The notes: generated from the letters alone by a model not told the origin. Positions 16,033 through 59,256 are shown, counted from the stretch's first letter. The stretch: DNA of 64,000 nucleotides from a virus (IMGVR_UViG_3300017727_000002), one strand, 5' to 3'. Numbers and translations are program-made.

Positions 16033-17004
16033 ATGGCAAATCCAGCAACAAGAGACCAATTAAAAGATTACGCATTGCGAAGTCTAGGATCGCCAGTGAT
16101 TGAAATAAATGTAGCTGACGAACAGTTAGAAGATCGCTTAGACGAAGCGATAGAATATTTTAATATTAATCATTGGAATGGTACTGAACGAGCATATTTC
16201 CAACATGTAATAGTTGGCACCAAACTAACACTTACTGCTGCTGTCGCAGGAAATTTTACTGGAGGGGAAACTATTACTGGTGGAACCACAGGTGCTAAAG
16301 CAGTTGTACATAAAAGTTCAACTGGTTCTGATATATTCTATCAAGTATTAATTAATCCTGGACCAGACCAAGTAAAATTTCAGGGTGGCGAAACTATTAC
16401 TGGTGACCAATCTGGTGCTACAGCAATTATATCAACTATTACTAGAGGAGACTGCGAAAATGGATTTATTCCAGTCACTGATGAGATATTTGGTGTAAAT
16501 AAAGTTTTTACAGTTTTTTCTAATACTACAGATTCTAGAAATATATTCGACTTACAATATCAATTAAGATTAAATGATTTATACGACTTGACCTCTACAA
16601 GTATTGTTTACTACACTACTGTTATGGGTCATTTAAGTTTACTTGATTTAATGTTAAATGGTAAAACTTTGTATCGTTTTAACAGAATGCAAAATAAACT
16701 ATTTCTAGATGTTGACTTCCGAAGCGATGTAAAAATCGGAGACTCTGTGATGGTCGATGTTTATAAAGCATTAAGTGGTACAGAATATCCAAAAGTATTT
16801 GGCGAACCATGGTTGAAAAAATATACTGCTGCTCTGTTTAAGAAACAGTGGGGACTTAATCTTAAAAAGTTTTCGGGACTAGTTTTACCTGGAGGTGTTT
16901 CAATGGATGGCGATGGTATATATAACGAAGCCATGAACGAACTACAACAACTAGAAGACGAACTCATAGGAAAAGGTGCACCACTAGAGTTCTTTACAGG
17001 GTAA
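16033..17004 (+). CDS. 13: Neck protein gp13
   Basis: LRSLGSPVIEINVADEQLEDRLDEAIEYF and WLKKYTAALFKKQWGLNLKKF...LPGGV motifs; synteny. Confidence 0.92.
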   Translation: MANPATRDQLKDYALRSLGSPVIEINVADEQLEDRLDEAIEYFNINHWNGTERAYFQHVIVGTKLTLTAAVAGNFTGGETITGGTTGAKAVVHKSSTGSDIFYQVLINPGPDQVKFQGGETITGDQSGATAIISTITRGDCENGFIPVTDEIFGVNKVFTVFSNTTDSRNIFDLQYQLRLNDLYDLTSTSIVYYTTVMGHLSLLDLMLNGKTLYRFNRMQNKLFLDVDFRSDVKIGDSVMVDVYKALSGTEYPKVFGEPWLKKYTAALFKKQWGLNLKKFSGLVLPGGVSMDGDGIYNEAMNELQQLEDELIGKGAPLEFFTG

Positions 17005-42696: not shown

Positions 42697-42954
42697 ATGG
42701 GAAAACATATAAAAACATCAATGGACGAAAAGGTAGTGGATTATCTTGCTATTGAATTATGGCGAAAAGATCCAAACAATAAAGTCCTCCATCAGTTGAT
42801 GGGTATGCAGAATGAGGAAGGAAACCATATTCGTAAGACTATCGATGCTTATGATAAAACAGGTGAGTTTCCAACCCACTATAATACCGATGGAACATGG
42901 AAATATTCGTCTGGACAGATAAGTTTTGACGCATTTTTATCACAAGGAAAGTAA
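42697..42954 (+). CDS. Hypothetical protein
   Basis: SD AGGAG; clean ORF. Confidence 0.6.
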   Translation: MGKHIKTSMDEKVVDYLAIELWRKDPNNKVLHQLMGMQNEEGNHIRKTIDAYDKTGEFPTHYNTDGTWKYSSGQISFDAFLSQGK

Positions 42955-44908: not shown

Positions 44909-45202
44909 ATGAAAAATAAAAATCCTAATATTGATTATAAATTTGATGAAGATAAACTTATTGAAGACTTCAAAGAATATATTGATAAAACTTACATGGG
45001 GCACTACAGTAAAAACTCATTTCAAGCAAGTGAATTTATTATTGATTGTGGTCATGGTATGGGATTTTTTATGGGTAATGTATTGAAGTATGCCCAAAGG
45101 TATGGCAAGAAAGATGGTTATAATCGTGCCGATATTTTAAAAATACTTCACTATGCATTGATGGCTTTACATCAACATGATAAAATTAACAAGGAGAAAT
45201 AA
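44909..45202 (+). CDS. DUF3310 (SaV-like) protein
   Basis: HY...FFMGNVLKYAQRYGKKDG...DILKILHY. Confidence 0.8.
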   Translation: MKNKNPNIDYKFDEDKLIEDFKEYIDKTYMGHYSKNSFQASEFIIDCGHGMGFFMGNVLKYAQRYGKKDGYNRADILKILHYALMALHQHDKINKEK

Positions 45203-45206
45203 TATT

Positions 45207-45872
45207 ATGAAAATTTCAAAAGAAACTTTGAGTGTCCTTAAGAACTTTGCCACTATTAATGGCAATATTCTTATTAAAGCTGGTAATCGTTTATCGACTA
45301 TATCAGCACAAAAAAATGTTATGGCTAGTACTACTGTCCAAGAAAACTTTGATGGTGAGTTTGGTATCTATGACTTAAATGAGTTTTTGGGTGTGTATTC
45401 TTTATTTGATGCAGATCCTGAACTTGCCTTTGATGAAAAGTTTGTCACTGTAGCAAATGGTAAATCTAAAGTAAAATATTTTGCTGCCGATCCATCAGTT
45501 CTAGCATCGCCAACTAAAGATGCTCTTCCTGTTGATGCAGATATTGAATTCGACTTATCAAAAACTATGTATGATATGATTATGAAAACATCTTCAGTAT
45601 TGAGATCTGGTGATGTATCATTCATTGGTGATGGTTCGAATGTTAGTGTAGTTGTAGCTGATAAAAAGAATGCTACTTCTAACTCTTGGGATGCTACTTT
45701 GGGCACAACTGATAAAGTGTTTAAAGTAAATTTCAGGATTGATAATTTCAAAATGCTAGATGGGGATTATGTAGTTTCTATTTCTAAGAAAAGAATCTCT
45801 AAGTTTGCTTCTAAGATGAATGACTTGACTTACTTCATCGCAGTTGAAGCTGACTCTACTTTTGACTTTTAA
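45207..45872 (+). CDS. 45: Sliding clamp gp45 (start corrected to ATG 45207)
   Basis: MKISKETLSVLKNFATIN, FGIYDLNEFL, YFIAVE. Confidence 0.96.
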   Translation: MKISKETLSVLKNFATINGNILIKAGNRLSTISAQKNVMASTTVQENFDGEFGIYDLNEFLGVYSLFDADPELAFDEKFVTVANGKSKVKYFAADPSVLASPTKDALPVDADIEFDLSKTMYDMIMKTSSVLRSGDVSFIGDGSNVSVVVADKKNATSNSWDATLGTTDKVFKVNFRIDNFKMLDGDYVVSISKKRISKFASKMNDLTYFIAVEADSTFDF

Positions 45873-45893: not shown

Positions 45894-46832
45894 ATGGATG
45901 ACCAATTTATTTGGGTCGAGAAATACAGACCTAAGACTATTGAGGAGTGTGTCCTTCCTGACAGTTTAAGGGATACATTCAAAGAGTTTGTTGCTAGTGG
46001 GCAACTGCCGAACTTCCTGTTCTGTGGTACTGCTGGTGTCGGTAAAACTACTGTCGCCAAAGCACTATGCAACGAAGTCGGTGCTGAGTATCTGTTCATT
46101 AATGGTTCCGAAGAATCTGGCATTGATGTGATACGAACAAAAATCAAAAACTTTGCTTCGTCGGTTTCCCTGACTGACTCAAAGAAAATCGTTATTCTTG
46201 ATGAAGCTGATTATTTGAATCCGAACAGTACTCAGCCAGCACTGAGAGCATTTATCGAAGAGTTCTCTGGGAACTGCCGATTTATATTTACCTGTAATTT
46301 TAAGAATAGGATTATTGAGCCACTTCACTCTAGATGTGCTGTGGTTGAGTTTAGGACTGATGCTAAGGATAAACCAGCAGTTGCTACAGCTTTCTATAAA
46401 AGAGTGGAGCATATTCTTAATACTGAGGGTGTGGACTTTGAGCAAAAAGCAGTTGTAGAAATTATACAAAAACATTATCCTGACTTCCGAAGGGTGCTGA
46501 ACGAACTTCAAAGATATTCAGTATCTGGTAAGATAGATAGTGGCATTATGATTAATGTCAGTGAAGAGTCCTGGAATAATCTCTTTACACTTCTAAAGGA
46601 TAAGAACTTCAAAGAGGTTCGTAAATGGGTCACTAAAAATAGTGATATTGAAACAACCCAATTATTTTCTGATATATTTAATAATGCTAATAACAAACTA
46701 GAATCTGCTTCAGTTCCACAAATGGTTCTGATTCTCGCAGATTATCAGTATAAAGCAGCATTTGTCGCTGACCATGAACTTAATAAAATGGCAGCACTTA
46801 CAGAGATAATGGCTTCCTGTAAGTTTAAATAA
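45894..46832 (+). CDS. 44: Clamp loader large subunit gp44
   Basis: WVEKYRPKTIEECVLP, GTAGVGKT, ILDEAD, PLHSRC. Confidence 0.97.
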   Translation: MDDQFIWVEKYRPKTIEECVLPDSLRDTFKEFVASGQLPNFLFCGTAGVGKTTVAKALCNEVGAEYLFINGSEESGIDVIRTKIKNFASSVSLTDSKKIVILDEADYLNPNSTQPALRAFIEEFSGNCRFIFTCNFKNRIIEPLHSRCAVVEFRTDAKDKPAVATAFYKRVEHILNTEGVDFEQKAVVEIIQKHYPDFRRVLNELQRYSVSGKIDSGIMINVSEESWNNLFTLLKDKNFKEVRKWVTKNSDIETTQLFSDIFNNANNKLESASVPQMVLILADYQYKAAFVADHELNKMAALTEIMASCKFK

Positions 46833-47215
46833 TGGCAAACCCTTTCCTTTATATTAACAACATAACTAACGACAAGAAGGATCTATTCCAGGATAATCCT
46901 CTTGCCGATAAGGATTATGTACCCTTTATTATTAATAGAGGTTTGAGTTATTTCCCTGACACAATAATGCAGTCCAACATGATGAACCAATATCATGATA
47001 TCCCGAAGTCTTGGCAATACTATTTTTTACTAAATACTATTACAAAAGGCAAAAGGTTCTCGAAGTGGCATAAAAATGAGAAGCAAACCGAGTCTTTGAA
47101 ACTGGTTATGGAATATTATGGATATTCTCCAGAAAAGGCTCGTCAGGTGATGGATATATTAACAACTGACCAGATGAGCATTATTGAACAAAAACTAAAT
47201 AAAGGTGGTAAATAG
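46832..47215 (+). CDS. 62: Clamp loader small subunit gp62
   Basis: YVPFIINRGLSYFPDT, KRFSKW, YYGYSPEKA. Confidence 0.93.
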   Translation: MANPFLYINNITNDKKDLFQDNPLADKDYVPFIINRGLSYFPDTIMQSNMMNQYHDIPKSWQYYFLLNTITKGKRFSKWHKNEKQTESLKLVMEYYGYSPEKARQVMDILTTDQMSIIEQKLNKGGK

Positions 47216-47217
47216 AC

Positions 47218-47634
47218 ATGTCAGTTGAAATGATACATTACGATTGGACTGCGGAGAAGATGCTTGAAGTCACACTCCCAGAGCCAGATAACTTTCTAAA
47301 AGTTAGAGAAACCCTAACTCGAATAGGAATATCTTCTCGCACAGAAAACAAACTATTTCAGTCTTGCCATATTTTACATAAACAAGGCAAGTATTTCATA
47401 GTACATTTTAAAGAACTTTTCGCATTAGATGGTAAAGAATCTAATATAGCTAATAACGATATTGAGCGAAGGAATACTATTGCTGTTCTGCTACAAGATT
47501 GGGAACTATTAAATATTGTAGATTCTAGTCAAGCTGAGCCAAAAGCATCCCTCTCTCAGATTAAGGTTTTATCCCATAAAGATAAATCTTCTTGGGAATT
47601 AGTACCTAAATATAATATTGGGAAAAAGAAATAA
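47218..47634 (+). CDS. regA: Translational repressor RegA
   Basis: PDNFLKVRETLTRIG, QSCHILHKQGKYFIVHFKELFALDG. Confidence 0.97.
   Translation: MSVEMIHYDWTAEKMLEVTLPEPDNFLKVRETLTRIGISSRTENKLFQSCHILHKQGKYFIVHFKELFALDGKESNIANNDIERRNTIAVLLQDWELLNIVDSSQAEPKASLSQIKVLSHKDKSSWELVPKYNIGKKK
47606..47612 (+). promoter_or_regulatory. Late promoter (CTAAATA) embedded in the regA 3' end
   Basis: 31 nt before the ATG of the inserted fibre gene. Confidence 0.5.
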
Positions 47635-49842: not shown

Positions 49843-52326
49843 ATGAAGTTTTATACAAATGTTCATCCCCATGGTAATCAGCTTCTAGTCAGATATATTT
49901 CTGGCACGAAGCGAAAAGCCGAGAAGATACCTTTCAAACCCAGTGTATGGGTCACAAAAGGTAAAGGCGAAACACCATACAAAACTCTTAAAGGGCATCC
50001 TGCTTATAAAATCCAACAAGGATCTATAAAGGATGCTAAAGACTTTGTACACCGATACAATGATGTTATGGAAGTACATGGTCAAACTCAGTGGCATTAC
50101 CAATATATGCATGATGAGTTTAAGGATGATATTGAATGGGATAAAGAACTTATTAAGATTTGGTCAATAGATATTGAGACTGAAACTGAAGAAGGATTCC
50201 CTAATATTGAACGAGCCAACGAGAAACTTCTACTAATTACTTTACAAGATAATCATTCAAAAGAGATTATTACTTTCGGCACTAAAGAATATACAGGTGA
50301 CGAAAAGCAACATAATAACTGGCGATATGTATATTGTCGTGATGAAAAGATTTTATTTCACAAGTTCCTAGATTACTGGATTGAAAATTATCCTGATGTA
50401 ATTACAGGTTGGAACTCTCAGTTTTTTGACCTCGCATATTTATGGCGAAGAATGTGTCATGTAATTGGCGAAGACCATGCTCGTAGATTGTCTCCTTGGA
50501 AAATTGTACATGAACGAGAGATATTCGTAAAAGGTAATAAAGAGTTCGCCATAGCAATCGCAGGTATTGCTCAACTTGATTATCTTGACCTCTATAAAAA
50601 ATATACTTACACAGCACAAGAATCTTATCGTCTAGATAATATTGCCTTCGTTGAACTTGGTCAAAAGAAACTTGACCATAGTGAGTACGCAACATTCTCA
50701 GAGTTCTATAGAAATGATTGGAATAAATTTGTTGATTATAATGTTATTGATACAGTATTAGTTGACAGGCTAGAAGATAAAATGAAGCTGATTGAACTTC
50801 AGCTTACTATGGCATATAATGCTAAGATTAATTATGATGATGTATTTTCTCAGGTTCGTATGTGGGATATGATTGTTCACAATTATCTGATGAAAGTAAA
50901 TGTGGTAATACCACCGAAATCTAATGAAGATAAAAAGACTAAGTTTGAAGGAGCATTCGTAAAAGAGCCATTGATTGGTTTACATAAATGGGTTGCTTCA
51001 TTTGACTTGAACTCGCTGTATCCCCATTTAATTATGCAATATAATATATCTCCCGAAACTCTACAACCTGAGTCTGTAGAAAAAGGAGTTGAGCATTATC
51101 TTAAAAACCCTGCCATAGATTCGGAGTTTGCTGTTGCTGCCAATGGCTCTCAATATAGAAAAGATTTCAGAGGTGTATTCCCTAGTATTATGGAAGACTT
51201 CTATAATCAAAGGAAGATCGCTAAGAAAGAGATGCTTCAAGCACAGCAATTATATGAGGATGAGAAAGATACTCGTCAGCTAAAAGTTATATCAAGTAAG
51301 AATAATTATCAGATGGGTTTGAAGATTGCTCTTAACTCAGCTTATGGTGCACTTGGTAATCAATACTTCAGATACTTTAATTTAAAAATGGCTGAAGCTA
51401 TTACTACTTCTGGTCAATTATCTATTCGTTGGATACACGATAGAATGAATGAATATCTCAACAAGATAATCGGTACAGAAAACGAAGATTATATTATCGC
51501 TGTTGATACAGATTCTATATATGTGACATTCGAAAAACTTGTAGATAAAGTTATGGGAGATAAACAATCTGACATAAATAAAACCATCAAGTTCCTAGAC
51601 ACTATATGTAATGATAAATTTATGCCATATATAAATGAACAATATTCTGAACTGGCTAATAGGCAAAATGCCTTTGCTAACAAGATGGTTATGGAAAGAG
51701 AAGTTCTAGCTGATAAAGGTTTATGGACTGCGAAAAAAAGGTATGTTCTTTCAGTGTATAATTCTGAAGGTGTGTCCTATAAAAAACCTAAGATGAAAAT
51801 TATGGGACTAGAGATGATTAAATCTTCTACTCCCTATGCTGTTCGTGAACTTCTAAAGGGTGTGATACCAGTTATCCTACATGGCGATAATAATGAACTC
51901 TTCAAATATATTGAAGAGACTAGAAACTATTTCAACTCTTTACCTATTGAAGAGATTTCCTTCCCTAGATCTGTAAATGGTCTCAGCAACTATAAAGATT
52001 CTATGAGCATATATAGGAAAGCAACTCCTATTCATGTCAGAGGTGCTTTACTTTATAATCATTATTTGAAAGAAAAGAACATAGACCTAAGATACAATGA
52101 TATTAAAGAGGGTGAGAAAATTAAATTCGTTTACTTGAAAAAACCTAATGTCATCAGGGAGAATGTTATATCCTTCCTAGATGTTGTTCCTAAAGAGTTC
52201 GGCATACATGATTATGCTGATTATGACTTGATGTTTGAAAAGGTATTCTTAGATCCAGTCGATATCATGATACAATCACTTGGATGGAAAGTAAAGCAAA
52301 CAGCCAGTCTTGAGGATTTCTTTTAA
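49843..52326 (+). CDS. 43: Family B DNA polymerase gp43
   Basis: DIETE exo I, SFDLNSLYPHLI, KIALNSAYG, VDTDS, KKRY; C-terminal SLEDFF clamp-binding peptide. Confidence 0.99.
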   Translation: MKFYTNVHPHGNQLLVRYISGTKRKAEKIPFKPSVWVTKGKGETPYKTLKGHPAYKIQQGSIKDAKDFVHRYNDVMEVHGQTQWHYQYMHDEFKDDIEWDKELIKIWSIDIETETEEGFPNIERANEKLLLITLQDNHSKEIITFGTKEYTGDEKQHNNWRYVYCRDEKILFHKFLDYWIENYPDVITGWNSQFFDLAYLWRRMCHVIGEDHARRLSPWKIVHEREIFVKGNKEFAIAIAGIAQLDYLDLYKKYTYTAQESYRLDNIAFVELGQKKLDHSEYATFSEFYRNDWNKFVDYNVIDTVLVDRLEDKMKLIELQLTMAYNAKINYDDVFSQVRMWDMIVHNYLMKVNVVIPPKSNEDKKTKFEGAFVKEPLIGLHKWVASFDLNSLYPHLIMQYNISPETLQPESVEKGVEHYLKNPAIDSEFAVAANGSQYRKDFRGVFPSIMEDFYNQRKIAKKEMLQAQQLYEDEKDTRQLKVISSKNNYQMGLKIALNSAYGALGNQYFRYFNLKMAEAITTSGQLSIRWIHDRMNEYLNKIIGTENEDYIIAVDTDSIYVTFEKLVDKVMGDKQSDINKTIKFLDTICNDKFMPYINEQYSELANRQNAFANKMVMEREVLADKGLWTAKKRYVLSVYNSEGVSYKKPKMKIMGLEMIKSSTPYAVRELLKGVIPVILHGDNNELFKYIEETRNYFNSLPIEEISFPRSVNGLSNYKDSMSIYRKATPIHVRGALLYNHYLKEKNIDLRYNDIKEGEKIKFVYLKKPNVIRENVISFLDVVPKEFGIHDYADYDLMFEKVFLDPVDIMIQSLGWKVKQTASLEDFF

Positions 52327-53374: not shown

Positions 53375-54418
53375 ATGGTTGGGTATTTAAACGACCTTAT
53401 AGATAATCTCGATAACGAGTACGCAGGACTTGCGGAAAATGCTCTAGACTCTGATGTCGGTTTTGTTGACACAGGGTCTTACGCATTTAATGCTTTATTG
53501 AGTGGTTCTATTTATGGTGGACTTCCAGGAAACAAGGTGACTGCCCTTGCTGGTGAGAGTTCTACAGGTAAAACTTTTTTCGCTCTAGGAGTTGCTAAAA
53601 ACTTCCTAGACATGGATAAAGAAGCAGGTGTTATATATTTTGAAACAGAGGGTGCACTTACTAAGCAAATCCTTGAAGATAGAGATATTGACACAAACAG
53701 ATTTGTTATTGTACCAGTGACAACTATTCAAGAGTTTCGTACTCAAGCTGTGCGTATTCTTGAAAATCATAAAACTGTACCTGAACAGGCAAGGAAACCT
53801 ATCCTATTTTGTTTAGACTCTTTGGGTATGCTCTCTACAAATAAAGAAGTAGCAGATGTAGCAGAGGGTAAGGATACTCGTGATATGACGAGAGCACAAT
53901 TAGTTAGAGGTGCTTTCAGAGTATTGAGTCTAAAACTCGCACAGCTTGATGTACCAATGATTGTGACCAATCATACTTTCGATGTTATAGGATCTTATGT
54001 ACCTATGAAAGACATGGGTGGTGGAGGTGGCTTAAAATATGCTGCATCTACAATCGTGTTCTTGGGTAAAAGTAAAGATCGTGATGGTACAGAAATCGTG
54101 GGCAATATTATTAAAGCAACTACTCAGAAGTCTAGATTTACTAAGGAGCAAATGAAAGTTGAATGTAAACTTAATTTTGAAACAGGTTTATCTAGATATC
54201 ATGGACTTACCGACCTTGCTGTTGAAGCAGGTATCTGGGAAAGTGCTGGTGGTCGTATTACTGTAGATGGTAAAAAAGTATTTGGTAAAGTTATTATGAA
54301 AGAGCCAGAAAAGTTTTTTACTGAAGAAGTATTAAAACAGATTGACGAACACTGTAAATCTAAATTTATGTATGGGACTGAAAGTGAGCAAGAAACCGAA
54401 GATAATACAGGGGAATAA
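53375..54418 (+). CDS. uvsX: Recombinase UvsX (RecA-like)
   Basis: AGESSTGKT, YFETEG, LDSLG, DMTRAQ, GGGGLKY. Confidence 0.97.
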   Translation: MVGYLNDLIDNLDNEYAGLAENALDSDVGFVDTGSYAFNALLSGSIYGGLPGNKVTALAGESSTGKTFFALGVAKNFLDMDKEAGVIYFETEGALTKQILEDRDIDTNRFVIVPVTTIQEFRTQAVRILENHKTVPEQARKPILFCLDSLGMLSTNKEVADVAEGKDTRDMTRAQLVRGAFRVLSLKLAQLDVPMIVTNHTFDVIGSYVPMKDMGGGGGLKYAASTIVFLGKSKDRDGTEIVGNIIKATTQKSRFTKEQMKVECKLNFETGLSRYHGLTDLAVEAGIWESAGGRITVDGKKVFGKVIMKEPEKFFTEEVLKQIDEHCKSKFMYGTESEQETEDNTGE

Positions 54419-54899: not shown

Positions 54900-56291
54900 A
54901 TGCGTATTGAAGACACTATATTAAATAATCTTATTCATAATGATGAGTACTGCCGAAAAGTAGTACCATTTATTAAAGCTGAATATTTCCAAGATAGAAC
55001 TGAAAAGATAATATTTGAAGAGTTTGATAAACTGTTCTTACAGTACAACAACATTCCTAATCCTGATATGATTGCTTCTGAAGTTTTTGAACGAAAAGAT
55101 TTATTTGAAAACGAGCATGCTCTTATTCAGGAAAAAATACAGCAGATGTCTGAGCCAAAATCTATTAATGATAATTGGCTATATGATAAAACTGAGGAAT
55201 GGTGTAAAGAACGAGCAGTACATAATACTATTATGGACTCTATCAAAATTATCGATGGTCGTGATAAAGTACATACCAAAGATGCGATTCCTAAAATGAT
55301 GCAGGATGCTTTGGGTGTTTGCTTTGATGACTCTGTCGGTCATGATTATCTTGAAGATGCTGATGATAGATTTCAATTTTATCATAAGATTGAAGAAAAA
55401 ATTAAATTTGATATTGATTTATTGAATACTATTACTCGTGGTGGTTTGAGTAAAAAAACTCTTAACATCGCCATGGCTGGTACTGGTGTTGGTAAATCTT
55501 TGTTTATGTGTCATCATGCATCTAGTGTATTGAACGAGGGTATGAATGTTCTTTATGTCACTATGGAGATGGCTGAAGAAAAGATATCTGAAAGGATTGA
55601 CGCAAACTTATTGAACTTGGGTATGGATGAAATTAAAGTTGTTGACCATGATATATTCAGTAAGAGAATTAATAAAGTAAAAGAAAACAGTAAAGGTAAA
55701 CTGATTGTAAAAGAATATCCTACAGGTGCTGCTCATGCAGGTCACTTCAGAGCATTACTTGAAGAACTTAAAATGAAAAAAGGTTTCAAAGCAGATATTA
55801 TATTTATCGATTATCTAAATATCTGTGCTTCGCAAAGACTAAGGATGGGTGCCAATGTAAATACTTATTCTTATATCAAATCTATTGCTGAAGAACTAAG
55901 AGGTCTGGCAGTTGAATATAACTGTCCTATCGTATCAGCTACTCAAACTACAAGAGGTGGATATAATAATACTGATGTTGGTCTTGAAGATACTTCGGAG
56001 TCTTTCGGTTTACCAGCTACTGCCGATCTAATGTTTGCGATTATTGCTAGTGAAGAACTGGATAATATGGGACAATGGATGATTAAACAACTTAAAAACA
56101 GATATTCAGATCCTAACTATTATAAGAGATTTGTAGTTGGGGTTGATAAAAACAAGATGAGATTGTACAATGTTGAAGAATCTGCCCAAAGTAATATAAT
56201 GGATAGTGGGCAGGAAGAAAAAGATATCGGAGCAGTATTTGATAAAACCGATGCAGGTGAACGATTAAGTATGGAAGGATTTAAGGTATGA
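54900..56291 (+). CDS. 41: Replicative helicase gp41
   Basis: AGTGVGKS, TMEMAEEKI, IDYLNI, SATQTTR, QLKNRY. Confidence 0.97.
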   Translation: MRIEDTILNNLIHNDEYCRKVVPFIKAEYFQDRTEKIIFEEFDKLFLQYNNIPNPDMIASEVFERKDLFENEHALIQEKIQQMSEPKSINDNWLYDKTEEWCKERAVHNTIMDSIKIIDGRDKVHTKDAIPKMMQDALGVCFDDSVGHDYLEDADDRFQFYHKIEEKIKFDIDLLNTITRGGLSKKTLNIAMAGTGVGKSLFMCHHASSVLNEGMNVLYVTMEMAEEKISERIDANLLNLGMDEIKVVDHDIFSKRINKVKENSKGKLIVKEYPTGAAHAGHFRALLEELKMKKGFKADIIFIDYLNICASQRLRMGANVNTYSYIKSIAEELRGLAVEYNCPIVSATQTTRGGYNNTDVGLEDTSESFGLPATADLMFAIIASEELDNMGQWMIKQLKNRYSDPNYYKRFVVGVDKNKMRLYNVEESAQSNIMDSGQEEKDIGAVFDKTDAGERLSMEGFKV

Positions 56292-57589
56292 CAAAAACAA
56301 TAACAGCACCTAAGAAATTTGACTGTGAAAATATATTGGGTAGATTTGGTGACGAAAGTCATTATGAGTTGTTAGTTGATTATGATTGTGATTTTTATGC
56401 TCCTACACCTATGGGTGAGGAAAACTCTGAAGAAAATATTATATTCAAGTTTAGAAAGAACTTCTTTTCTCAAGAACAACAAGACGAAGCATATAAAGGA
56501 CTTCGTGAAGCAGCAGGTGCCACTGAAAATCGTGGACTCGCAGCAGGTATAGAAAAAACCAAATCGCTTGGCTCTAGAGATTGGGTCACTAATTACCATG
56601 AAGAATTATTGGCATATTTTCAAAACCCATCTACAACACTAGATGGTTCTGACCCAGTAGAAAATATTAAAGCTAAGTGGAAAGGTAGAGAGAATATTGC
56701 TGATGACAGTAGAGGTAATGTATGGTTGGCTCTTAAAGTTGCTGAGGAAGCATTTGAGTTTGAAGCATGGGTTGAAGAGATAAGGTTATTACCCAAAGAT
56801 GAAATGGTAGCTGAAGCGAATAGAGTTAGAGATAAACTTACATCTACAACTTCTTATGCTAATCAGGTTTTCTCAGGTATCGCAGGTTATTTTGACAGAT
56901 ATCCTCGTATTCCTTTTGGTCGTCCTACAACTTACACTCGTGATAATTATGATAAGTTTGAGATGGCACTTCCTTTCTTACAACAACTTAGTAAAGGATT
57001 TGAAGATCTATTACCTGTCAGATATGGTAAGCAGAATGAAGCATGTGGTAAATTAGATTCTAAGTTTATTATTCCAGGAACTGTATTTACTACTGCTACT
57101 GTAAACAAAACTTTTAGAACAGCTTACCATAGAGATGCTGGTGATTTGAATGAAGGTTTTTCTAATCTTACTGTTGTATCTAATAATGGTAAATACTCAG
57201 GTGGTCATTTAATACTTCCTGAATATAAGGTTGCTGTAAACATTCGTCCTGGAGATTTATTACTAATTAATAATCATGACGGAATACATGGTAATACACC
57301 TATGGTTATGGAATCTGATGATGCTGAAAGAATATCATTCGTGTGTTATTTTAGGGAAAAAATGTTAGAACTTGGATCTTGGGATTATGAAAGGGCAAGG
57401 GAAGATTATGTCACTGCTCGTAGAACTAATAAAGAACACCCTTTACAAAGAAAATTATGGAATGGTATCAGTCCTGGAATGTGGGATGAAAGTGAGTGGT
57501 ACGATTTCTTAGAAAATAAATTAGGTATAGATGTATTGACTAAGTATCATCCCGACAGTCAGTCATCAAGTTTGGAGGAATTTTTCTAA
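56288..57589 (+). CDS. TET/JBP-family 2OG-Fe(II) dioxygenase (DNA base hydroxylase)
   Basis: FTTATVNKTFRTAYHRDAGD (HxD), HGNT (distal His), ERISFVCYFRE (2OG-binding Arg); ends SSLEEFF. Confidence 0.8.
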   Translation: MTKTITAPKKFDCENILGRFGDESHYELLVDYDCDFYAPTPMGEENSEENIIFKFRKNFFSQEQQDEAYKGLREAAGATENRGLAAGIEKTKSLGSRDWVTNYHEELLAYFQNPSTTLDGSDPVENIKAKWKGRENIADDSRGNVWLALKVAEEAFEFEAWVEEIRLLPKDEMVAEANRVRDKLTSTTSYANQVFSGIAGYFDRYPRIPFGRPTTYTRDNYDKFEMALPFLQQLSKGFEDLLPVRYGKQNEACGKLDSKFIIPGTVFTTATVNKTFRTAYHRDAGDLNEGFSNLTVVSNNGKYSGGHLILPEYKVAVNIRPGDLLLINNHDGIHGNTPMVMESDDAERISFVCYFREKMLELGSWDYERAREDYVTARRTNKEHPLQRKLWNGISPGMWDESEWYDFLENKLGIDVLTKYHPDSQSSSLEEFF

Positions 57590-58413
57590 TGGACATTTTA
57601 AAAGATTATCAAATCTGTATCCCATCATATAAGCGACACGAAACTGTGATGAATAAAACCATCGAGGTATTAAAGTCATATAATATTGACCCAGCTAGGA
57701 TTAAAGTATTCGTGAATGATGAGGAGCCAGGAGAGTATGACAATTATGTAGATACTTTATCTAAAACTGAATACACAAAAAATATTGAAGTCGTAAAAGG
57801 TGTACCAACTATTGGTAAGCAAAGAAACTTCATAGAGAAGTATTATCCTGAAGGAACTTATGTCATGTCTTTTGATGATGATATTGAAGAAGTACAAGTT
57901 AAGGATGGCGAGCAAAACTTACTGCGTGTTGAAGACTTTGAAAAAGAAGTTATACTTAGAGGTTTCCAAGCATGTGAAGATAACGATGCTAAGACTTTCG
58001 GTATATATGCAGCATCAAATGCGTACTTTATGAAGCATCGTACATATACGAAACTTTGTTATATTATCGCTAGTATGTATGGATTTATAGCTGACCACGA
58101 TCCTGAATTAGATCGTCATACTAATCATGGTGAAGATTATGAGTATAGTATGCGTCAATATAGAAAACATGGTGTTGTCGTAAGACTTGATGATATTACT
58201 GTAAAATCTAATTACTATAAAGAGGTTGGTGGCTTACAAACATTTAGAACTGCTGAAAATATTAAGTCAAGTATTGAGTGGATTGCTGAGAACTTTGACG
58301 ATTTATGTACGATGTATATTCGTAAGACTACTGGGCATGCTGAATTAAAATTGCGTGATACATCTGGTGGTAAATATGATAAAAATTTAAGCACATTAGA
58401 AGGTTTCTTTTGA
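57589..58413 (+). CDS. TET-associated glycosyltransferase (TAGT, GT-A fold)
   Basis: ICIPSYKR, QRNFI, FDDDI (DxD), GEDYEYS, YYKEVGGLQ; coupled to the TET gene; ends STLEGFF. Confidence 0.78.
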   Translation: MDILKDYQICIPSYKRHETVMNKTIEVLKSYNIDPARIKVFVNDEEPGEYDNYVDTLSKTEYTKNIEVVKGVPTIGKQRNFIEKYYPEGTYVMSFDDDIEEVQVKDGEQNLLRVEDFEKEVILRGFQACEDNDAKTFGIYAASNAYFMKHRTYTKLCYIIASMYGFIADHDPELDRHTNHGEDYEYSMRQYRKHGVVVRLDDITVKSNYYKEVGGLQTFRTAENIKSSIEWIAENFDDLCTMYIRKTTGHAELKLRDTSGGKYDKNLSTLEGFF

Positions 58414-58541
58414 ACGAATTAAAACCATTTATCTTAGGTATAGCAATAGCAATGTTATTTGTTGGTCTTATAATATGGATAAGTCCATATGGTGGTCAGC
58501 ATGAGCCATTAGATATATTAATTAGAATCTATCAACAATGA
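58410..58541 (+). CDS. Small membrane peptide (43 aa, TTG start)
   Basis: Fills the gap with 4-nt overlaps at both ends; one hydrophobic helix. Confidence 0.45.
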   Translation: MNELKPFILGIAIAMLFVGLIIWISPYGGQHEPLDILIRIYQQ

Positions 58542-58957
58542 GAACTGGTATAACTGCTTCAACTTTCGACCTGCTTCATGCTGGTCATGTACAAATGTTA
58601 AGGGATGCCAAATCTCAATGCGATTATTTAATAGCATGTTTACAGATAGATCCTAGTATAGATAGAAAAGATAAAAATGCTCCAATACAAACTGTCGTTG
58701 AAAGATACACACAATTAAAAGCAGTAAAATATGTTGATGAGATTATACCATATTCAAGCGAAAAAGATTTAGAAGATATCTTAGAATTATATGAGATTGA
58801 TGTTAGAATACTAGGCGAGGAATATAGAGAAAAAGATTTTACTGGTAAGGATATATGTAAGAGAAGAGATATAGAATTATATTTTAATAAGAGGGAACAT
58901 AGGTTTTCCTCCACAGATTTGAGAGAAAGGGTGAGTGAGCAATGGTCTGGAAAGTAG
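58538..58957 (+). CDS. Cytidylyltransferase (TagD / glycerol-3-phosphate cytidylyltransferase-like)
   Basis: STFDLLHAGH (HxGH), KYVDEIIPY, RFSSTDLRERV. Confidence 0.88.
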   Translation: MRTGITASTFDLLHAGHVQMLRDAKSQCDYLIACLQIDPSIDRKDKNAPIQTVVERYTQLKAVKYVDEIIPYSSEKDLEDILELYEIDVRILGEEYREKDFTGKDICKRRDIELYFNKREHRFSSTDLRERVSEQWSGK

Positions 58958-59256
58958 CAAAGAAAGACGAAAGATATACTGTATTAGATTATGAAGGATT
59001 GAATGTTCTCGTACCTTCTCTCACAATTTTACAACCTGGATGTGAAACTAATGGTCATGTACACAGTGACCCACAACAGGAAGAAGTTTATGTATTTACA
59101 ACTGGCACTGGACTCATGGAAGTTGAAGATGAAACGATCTCTGTAAAAGCTGGAGACATCATCCCAGTGCCAGCCAATAAATTTCATAAAGTCTATAATA
59201 ATGATGTAGTGCCATTACACTTTGCTGCTGTATTCAATGGTGCTAGATATGAGTAA
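58942..59256 (+). CDS. Cupin domain protein
   Basis: GHVH...EEVYVF..G.G...GDII.VP....HKVYN cupin metal motif. Confidence 0.8.
   Translation: MVWKVAKKDERYTVLDYEGLNVLVPSLTILQPGCETNGHVHSDPQQEEVYVFTTGTGLMEVEDETISVKAGDIIPVPANKFHKVYNNDVVPLHFAAVFNGARYE

Follow-up and report, generated by a model that had tools for sequence, protein, structure and literature searches.

Hypermodified DNA is one of the main means by which phages counter restriction and CRISPR, and the enzymes that make it are used in epigenetic sequencing. Here we consider a TET/JBP-type (5mYOX) 2-oxoglutarate/Fe(II) DNA pyrimidine dioxygenase (TET) and a TET-associated glycosyltransferase (TAGT), which are encoded side by side in a 64,000-nt stretch of viral DNA (IMGVR_UViG_3300017727_000002; the window) and end in the same kind of peptide as gp43, the DNA polymerase encoded there. 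Several described systems come close. The T4 α-glucosyltransferase pulls down the sliding clamp gp45 (Sommer et al. 2004; repeated in PMC13216743), so that clamp binding is already on record for a T4-type DNA glycosyltransferase, and it has been suggested that glucosylation accompanies replication. In the clusters of C5-methyltransferase, TET, and glycosyltransferase genes described by Burke et al. (2021, PMC8256090), TET is followed by one or more glycosyltransferases and sometimes by a CTP-transferase, and some contigs have a DNA polymerase or clamp loader gene beside the cluster. In the 5mYOX176/ParB176 system (O'Toole et al. 2026, PMC13229309), a TET/JBP-type dioxygenase requires or uses a DNA-encircling partner on duplex DNA, and ParB-dependent thymine dioxygenases have the same associations with GATase, P-loop kinase, amino-acid:DNA transferase (AADT), and glycosyltransferases as are seen here. 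In eukaryotic maintenance methylation, a DNA-modifying enzyme, DNMT1, is likewise recruited to new DNA by a short motif, the PIP box, that binds the clamp PCNA (PMC9690074).

The locus differs from each of these systems. The T4 α-glucosyltransferase belongs to family PF11440 and ends in EQFDIITK without a polymerase-type tail, its contact with the clamp being different; it acts on hydroxymethylcytosine incorporated before replication, and clamp binding is a minor determinant according to a 2026 study (PMC13216743). The β-glucosyltransferase and Dam in the T4 record also lack such a tail. Compared with the Burke-type clusters, the window has no C5-methyltransferase, and the paper describes no clamp-binding tail; in Melnitz, which has a cluster of this type, the C5-methyltransferase is tail-less and TET has a variant tail (NLNDFLGE). 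ParB is absent from the gp45-type genomes tested, and the partner we propose for them is the clamp of the replisome, contacted by way of a linear motif in the tail. Among non-T4-like phages, it is the ParB-adjacent TET of HTVC112P to which the catalytic core of the window TET is closest (45% identity). For DNMT1 and PCNA, the clamp, the motif, and the chemistry all differ and the PIP box is internal, so that the likeness is one of analogy only.

A shared C-terminal tail on the polymerase, TET, and TAGT

The region read here, with ~35% GC, holds the replication genes of a myovirus that is T4-like and of marine or environmental origin. Polymerase gp43 (49843..52326, plus strand, 827 aa) ends in KQTASLEDFF, TET (56288..57589, plus strand, 433 aa) in SQSSSLEEFF, and TAGT (57589..58413, plus strand, 274 aa) in NLSTLEGFF, with the core tails encoded on the same strand at 52306..52323 (SLEDFF), 57569..57586 (SLEEFF), and 58393..58410 (TLEGFF). 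No other open reading frame (ORF) among the 278 six-frame ORFs of at least 40 aa has such an ending, and a search of the window proteome (~20,000 residues) for [ST]L[DE]xFF gives three matches, each at an extreme C terminus, where about 2-4e-4 matches are expected by chance. The leucine codons of the three tails differ (CTT, TTG, and TTA), which rules out a recent duplication of the tail as DNA; what is maintained is therefore the resemblance between the peptides.

The polymerase tail corresponds to a known clamp-binding peptide. The window gp43 is a family-B DNA polymerase (PF00136 and PF03104) that aligns end to end with RB69 gp43 (E 3e-133), KQTASLEDFF pairing with EKKASLFDMF(DF) of RB69, and the tail is present in 39 of 40 gp43 homologs of related contigs. 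The RB69 gp43 C-terminal peptide is reportedly the one that Shamoo and Steitz crystallized on the clamp in 1999; 1B8H is the RB69 clamp-peptide structure, and 7D7D is the T4 late-transcription complex. In the T4 record, gp43 ends in SLDFLFG and gp55 in SLDFLYEAND, and both gp33 and gp55 bind gp45 via a C-terminal LDFL motif (review PMC9690074). The TET and TAGT tails resemble those of T4 and RB69 gp43, gp55, and gp33 in lying at the extreme C terminus, in their hydrophobic-acidic core, (S/T)-L-(D/E)-x-(F/L)-(F/L), with a consensus comparable to SLDFLF (T4) and SLFDMF (RB69), and in that the cognate gp45 and its gp44/62 loader are encoded nearby in the window, as is a polymerase bearing the same peptide. 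They differ in their clients, which are DNA base-modifying enzymes rather than polymerase or transcription factors. No published description of polymerase-type tails on TET, TAGT, AADT, or kinases was found, in a literature coverage that is incomplete and so gives no proof of novelty.

The two enzymes were identified by profile matches. TET matches PF12851 (E 2e-20; 73.1 bits against a cut-off of 34.9), and its residues H281, D283, H334, and R348 are invariant in 22 homologs; from their positions in the family pattern, the first three would form the HxD...H iron triad and R348 would be the 2-oxoglutarate-binding arginine. The best Foldseek matches of the TET model are the TET-DNA complexes of CcTet, NgTET1, and TET2 (E 2e-8 to 1e-5, probability 1.00, TM 0.38-0.48). 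TAGT matches PF20691 (E 1e-11; 45.6 bits against a cut-off of 27.5), and its DDD motif (D96, D97, and D98), an acidic DxD of the GT-A type, is invariant in 40 homologs. The pair lies directly behind the replicative helicase gp41 (54900..56291, plus strand; PF03796 and PF00772), where the overlap ATGA contains both the gp41 stop and the TET start and the overlap TAATG both the TET stop and the start of TAGT, and the TET-TAGT pairing is conserved in other lineages. An earlier reading made from the sequence only (the sequence-only reading) had noted the shared endings, found on no other window protein, had identified that of gp43 as the polymerase's clamp-binding peptide, and had described TET and TAGT as translationally coupled behind gp41; the ORF scan and motif count, the homology to the RB69 peptide, and the overlaps, which make the coupling real at the sequence level, bear out all three statements.

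A survey of homolog C termini, which that reading had proposed, shows the tail to be conserved behind a variable linker. The TET tail, [ST]-L-[DE]-x-F-F with zero or one trailing residue, is present in all of the 120 best homologs (56-100% identity), and the TAGT tail, [ST]-L-[DE]-x-[FL]-F-(x), in 112 of 120, so that conservation across homologs of the two enzymes reaches down to about 56-60% identity. The entropy at tail positions -1, 0, +1, +3, and +4 is 0-1.5 bits, compared with 2.1-2.8 bits for the preceding five or six linker residues; on these alignments, the tails of both enzymes are under selection. In the predicted structures, the tails lie outside the folds: the last helix of TET ends at about residue 420 and is followed by a lower-confidence linker and then a turn at LEEF, and TAGT, modeled with a pLDDT of 90.5, has its last strand up to residue 255, beyond which a coil of ~19 residues, with pLDDT falling to 47, carries the motif. 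Because a conserved motif follows a variable linker and lies beyond the modeled fold, each tail resembles a short linear motif held on a flexible tether.

Co-variation with the polymerase tail and with the presence of gp45

The strongest argument for clamp tethering is that the enzyme tails, as read from the sequences, co-vary with the tail of the cognate polymerase. The window polymerase ends in SLEDFF, with SLEEFF on TET and TLEGFF on TAGT. In C48C1, gp43 ends in TLEDFFG, TET in SLEEFFV, and a Dam-type methyltransferase in STLDAFFG, and in DLP_6 the gp43 and TET endings are TLDSFFA and TLGDFFV. Cr30 has DLSSLFD on gp43, DLSKLF on a TAGT-like protein, and GATLF on TET. The polymerase of Cygsa01 ends in SVMDFFS, its AADT in DLMGFFQ, and two proteins of the 5-hydroxymethyldeoxyuridine (5-hmdU) DNA kinase family in NVFDLF and SVLDLF. 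In the ViI-like phage Det7, gp43 ends in VNLLSMMGKKG, the AADT in VNLMTLLKR, and the 5-hmdU DNA kinase in VSLLGLLSKG; the thymidine-hypermodification enzymes of this group have been biochemically characterized (PMC8989533). The enzyme tail thus follows the polymerase tail across four lineage-specific dialects, as tethering to a common clamp would predict. The optional trailing residue (FF or FFx) co-varies between gp43 and TET of the marine group only partially, and we do not use it as evidence.

Whole genomes scanned with their own dialects give short lists. Four of 206 Det7 ORFs match, namely gp43, the AADT, the kinase, and a 69-aa ORF; in Cygsa01 the matches are 4 of 234, comprising gp43, the two kinase-family proteins, and a 103-aa ORF, with the AADT tail observed separately and not among these four. 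The two small ORFs, neither with a Pfam match, are at positions 84862-85071 of Det7 (NC_027119; 69 aa, ending in KINLLNMMRK) and 109399-109710 of Cygsa01 (PP179332; 103 aa, ending in NSLLDFF), and by their endings they are candidates for gp33-like clamp-binding transcription co-activators.

The tail also tracks the distribution of gp45. The TET homologs of podovirus HTVC112P, siphovirus P12024L, and S-CBWM1 have no tail, and no gp45 homolog was found in any of the three; the TET and TAGT of actinophages Indlovu and Altadena are tail-less as well. A gp45 homolog is present in Cr30 and Melnitz. In HTVC112P, Indlovu, and Altadena a ParB-like gene adjoins TET, ParB (PF02195) was found in none of ten gp45-type records (G001-G005, DLP_6, C48C1, Cr30, Melnitz, and Det7), and tblastn found no ParB or Dam homolog in the window. 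From this distribution, gp45 may take the place of ParB in the gp45-type phages. A TAGT-like protein of S-CBWM1 (contig L113, 3819-4673) ends in HELEDLLP although no gp45 homolog was detected there, which may be chance or a tail for a different clamp.

Tail-bearing families in related contigs

Alignment-based searching yielded 80 related viral contigs; a single TET query matched no viral contig. The order gp43, UvsX, gp41, TET is nearly universal in these loci (gp41-TET in 77 of 80), and a variable cassette follows TET. ORFs of at least 100 aa on the TET strand were clustered, and the 45 families with at least five members were scanned for a loose core tail, L-x-x-F plus up to two residues. 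Only 5 of the 45 families carry it: gp43 (39/40), TET (79/80), AADT (PF18724; 20/29), and two families of GNAT acetyltransferases, a (13/16) and b (14/14). The background is 6 of 767 ORFs (0.8%), and one of the six is a GT1 glycosyltransferase encoded directly after TET; a second TAGT clade carries the tail in three of three members. The tail is absent from cassette enzymes expected to act on small molecules, including inositol-1-phosphate synthase, GATase, FkbM methyltransferase, and the cytidylyltransferase-like protein and cupin of the window. This unbiased scan therefore restricts the tail to the polymerase and DNA-modification enzymes. Outside the scan, the gene after gp43 in C48C1 (contig L099, 1547-2431) encodes a Dam-type N6-adenine DNA methyltransferase (PF02086, E 1e-23) whose full ending is ESTLDAFFG. 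What these proteins carry is a known clamp-binding tail on new classes of client: TET, TAGT, AADT, 5-hmdU DNA kinases, GNATs, GT1, and Dam.

Two stricter generalizations fail. That all DNA-acting enzymes carry the tail is ruled out by the PF18751 kinase of marine cassettes and the Melnitz C5-methyltransferase, both tail-less, and that the tail is unique to DNA enzymes in an absolute sense is ruled out by a baseplate protein. This protein (PF12322; contigs L089, 787-1518, and L088, which belong to complete relatives G003 and G004) ends in LEGLESFF or LEGLDSFF, and its ending lies inside the domain.

The cassette varies even among close relatives. In those closest to the window (contig L008, 11302-14590, and L010, L012, and L013; TET 82-85% identical), an FkbM methyltransferase, a 394-aa AADT, and inositol-1-phosphate synthase replace TAGT, the cytidylyltransferase, and the cupin; on its gene content, the site after gp41-TET is a hypervariable plug-in slot. 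In other T4-like lineages (L107, 6700-8792; L109, 6572-8807), the tailed TET-TAGT pair is found within the cluster of clamp and clamp loader genes instead of behind gp41, either shortly before gp45 or separating gp44 from gp62. Family F43 (L041, 11958-12776; L048, L049, and L083), with 266-272 aa and no Pfam match, ends in LLQAFAS or LIEAFA and may be a further tail-bearing DNA-modifying enzyme.

Substrate and chemistry

The sequence-only reading had left two substrates for TET, 5-methylcytosine made elsewhere or thymine, the latter giving a base J-like product, and had noted that no C5-methyltransferase is encoded in the window. That absence was confirmed by tblastn. The check that it proposed of the rest of the genome could be made on relatives instead: PF00145 is absent from three 100%-complete relatives, the nearest long relative (73% complete), DLP_6, C48C1, and Cr30, and the same search detected the Melnitz C5-methyltransferase as a positive control. 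In many of the sister cassettes, TET is accompanied by GATase, AADT, and a kinase of the 5-hmdU type, a set that has been linked to thymine dioxygenases (O'Toole et al. 2026, PMC13229309). Because no C5-methyltransferase was found and the sister cassettes encode thymidine-hypermodification enzymes, thymine is the better supported of the two substrates, and the somewhat likelier route would be its oxidation to 5-hydroxymethyluracil (5-hmU) followed by glycosylation.

The alternative chemistry starts from 5-methylcytosine, made by an enzyme encoded beyond the window, whether a C5-methyltransferase or one that methylates dCMP, and ends in glycosyl-5-hydroxymethylcytosine. It has precedents, in that 5-methylcytosine is the substrate of the characterized clade A and clade B phage TETs (PMC8256090) and the T4-like phage Melnitz encodes gp43, a C5-methyltransferase, and TET in a row, and the sequence read covers 64 kb of the genome. 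Against it stand the lack of a match in the window and in the relatives just named, where Melnitz shows that the search finds such enzymes, the thymidine-type machinery of the sister cassettes, and the low frequency of the pairing elsewhere, only 6% of 5mYOX pathways having a C5-methyltransferase (PMC13229309). We regard 5-methylcytosine as an unlikely substrate, though one to be taken seriously; this judgment concerns the chemical step and not tethering, and is not to be added to those on the alternatives below.

Proposed tethering to the clamp and its alternatives

We propose that the tails of TET and TAGT tether both enzymes to gp45, a reading to which we give a probability of roughly three in four, and that DNA hypermodification is thus probably tethered to the clamp on newly copied DNA. 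In this mechanism, gp44/62 would load gp45 on primed, replicating phage DNA, and the TET or TAGT tail would dock in the hydrophobic pocket of a gp45 subunit, the same type of pocket as is used by gp43. The enzymes would thereby be concentrated on clamps, either in free pockets of the polymerase's own trimer or on clamps left on the new duplex; enzymes traveling behind the polymerase are indistinguishable here from enzymes on orphaned clamps, and either arrangement serves equally. TET would hydroxylate a 5-methylpyrimidine, most likely thymine to 5-hmU, and TAGT would glycosylate the product, with a donor probably supplied by the adjacent tail-less cytidylyltransferase and cupin. Tethering could make the enzymes processive, couple modification in time to replication, and keep it confined to phage DNA, and in relatives the same device may serve AADTs, 5-hmdU DNA kinases, GNATs, GT1, and Dam. 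The clamp-tethered machine proposed by the sequence-only reading is in this respect supported by homology, conservation, co-variation, the link to gp45, and the family scan. The placement of the TET-TAGT pair in other lineages, the modeled position of both tails beyond the fold, the pull-down of gp45 by the T4 α-glucosyltransferase, and, weakly, the predicted complex described next also count in its favor.

Several observations weigh against this reading. The complex of gp45 with the C-terminal peptides, a further check that had been proposed, was predicted for the TET tail, and a gp45 trimer (with a 103-row alignment) and TET residues 400-433 gave ipSAE scores of 0.55, 0.51, and 0.48; although 0.51 compares with 0.02 for the best of three controls, the prediction was rated weak support and returned no interface, and since a similar complex has already been solved, the score may reflect memory of it. 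The tail is missing from about 8 of 120 TAGT homologs and 9 of 29 AADTs, and the PF18751 P-loop kinase of marine cassettes and the Melnitz C5-methyltransferase have no clear tail. The motif is not perfectly specific, as the PF12322 baseplate protein of two complete relatives ends in LEGLESFF. The TET linker is short in the model, at ~8 residues, and may constrain geometry on the clamp. In the only case put to the test, the T4 α-glucosyltransferase, the authors conclude that promoter strength, and not clamp binding, sets the modification level (PMC13216743). As to the chemistry, the absence of a C5-methyltransferase beyond the 64 kb of the window rests on relatives, and one may be present there.

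The shared tail could instead bind a common partner other than gp45, such as gp32, the gp44/62 loader, RNA polymerase, or a phage chaperone, in which case the enzymes would be localized, but not by the clamp. The prediction that returned no interface leaves room for this, as does T4, whose α-glucosyltransferase binds gp45 without a canonical tail, so that tail and clamp binding are not strictly linked. However, each residue of the polymerase tail has its homologous counterpart in the RB69 peptide whose structure on gp45 is solved, tails occur only in phages that have gp45, and control complexes in which the receptor or the peptide was an unrelated one scored 0.00-0.02; we consider another partner quite improbable.

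The tail might also bind gp45 with a mainly regulatory purpose, competing with gp43 or with gp55 and gp33 and so timing replication or late transcription, or it might stabilize the proteins. Competition is unavoidable, because clients of the T4 gp45 trimer share one kind of pocket (PMC9690074), and clamp binding by the T4 α-glucosyltransferase had little effect on glucosylation levels (PMC13216743). Nonetheless, the tail occurs on at least six unrelated enzyme families that share only their action on DNA bases and is absent from the enzymes that make small-molecule donors (inositol-1-phosphate synthase, GATase, FkbM methyltransferase, cytidylyltransferase, and cupin); substrate delivery therefore fits better than regulation, and we find a chiefly regulatory or stabilizing role very improbable. 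Chance or compositional resemblance without function is effectively refuted, for although short motifs recur by chance and a baseplate protein also ends in LESFF, three tails are seen where ~3e-4 are expected in the window, they are invariant in over 100 homologs of either enzyme although the linkers before them vary, and they co-vary across four dialects over a background of 0.8% even for the loose core.

Tethering of the modifying enzymes to gp45 would bear on a wider question. The rationale for post-replicative modification has been called 'a mystery' (2026 PNAS study, PMC13229309), and a clamp tail would offer a simple answer to the question of how enzymes acting after replication gain access to enough of a genome that is copied so fast, and to phage DNA only: they would be passengers of the replication clamp. 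If so, the tail provides a sequence rule predicting which neighboring genes of unknown function act directly on DNA, may explain the inactivity of some phage TETs expressed alone, and extends to ViI-type phages with biochemically characterized kinases and AADTs. More tentatively, and with rather more doubt than confidence, we suggest that phages which hypermodify pyrimidines after replication could generally depend on delivery by a DNA-encircling clamp and have two exchangeable solutions for it. In T4-type replisomes, the gp45-binding tail of the phage's polymerase is added to the enzymes and co-evolves in dialects particular to each lineage; in phages without gp45, TET is paired with ParB, a CTP-gated clamp. 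If that holds, the clade-C1 thymine dioxygenases that have no ParB and were reported to be inactive in E. coli would be missing gp45, placed on DNA by gp44/62, as their activator, and the cassette behind gp41 would be a plug-in slot in which any enzyme acquiring the tail joins the replisome tool-belt.

The replication module and minor observations

The clamp and its loader are encoded upstream of the polymerase. Sliding clamp gp45 (45207..45872, plus strand, 221 aa) matches the processivity factor PHROG 223 (E 5e-71), and its homology to T4 gp45 (1CZD) and RB69 gp45 (1B77 and 1B8H) spans the whole protein, with E values of 1e-20 to 1e-23. The ORF extends from 45177 to 45872, but in each of the 150 homologs listed the protein starts at what is residue 11 of this ORF, and the ATG at 45207 has an AAGGAG Shine-Dalgarno sequence before it; 45207 is thus the true start, and the earliest start in frame, 45177, is probably wrong. 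The clamp loader genes follow, gp44 at 45894-46832 (plus strand; PHROG 168, E 1e-121) and gp62 at 46832-47215 (plus strand; PHROG 225, E 8e-42), and then regA at 47218-47634; UvsX lies at 53375-54418. Also upstream in the window are gp55, gp46/47, and UvsW. Behind the TET-TAGT pair are the cytidylyltransferase-like gene (58538-58957, plus strand; PF01467, E 3.5e-15) and the cupin gene (58942-59256, plus strand; PF07883, E 8e-11), whose products have no tail and which, from gene position, probably make the activated donor for TAGT.

A few window proteins have endings that are near-variants of the tail. An 85-aa ORF (42697-42954) ends in ISFDAFLSQGK (...GQISFDAFLSQGK), resembling the LDFL-type tails of T4; its candidacy as a gp33-like clamp-binding co-activator is unsupported, there being no Pfam, PHROG, or PDB match. 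The tail region of the window gp55 does not align with the T4 gp55 tail, so that, between this ORF and gp55, no independent clamp client is readable in the window. A structural-module ORF (16033-17004) ends in APLEFFTG, and the bare motif evidently gives occasional false positives. Helicase gp41 has a C-terminal tail of its own (56262-56288), LSMEGFKV in the window and [SE]-F-x-G-F-K-F in most of 77 relatives, with SSFKFDE in some; it is unlike the clamp tail, and a helicase loader or primase are obvious guesses for its partner.

Several TET/JBP dioxygenases are mislabeled in public records. Those of DLP_6, Cr30, S-CBWM1, and HTVC112P (among contigs L001, L003, L111, L113, and L115) are called 'SNF2 DNA repair protein', and that of actinophage Indlovu is annotated in GenBank as 'queuine tRNA-ribosyltransferase'.

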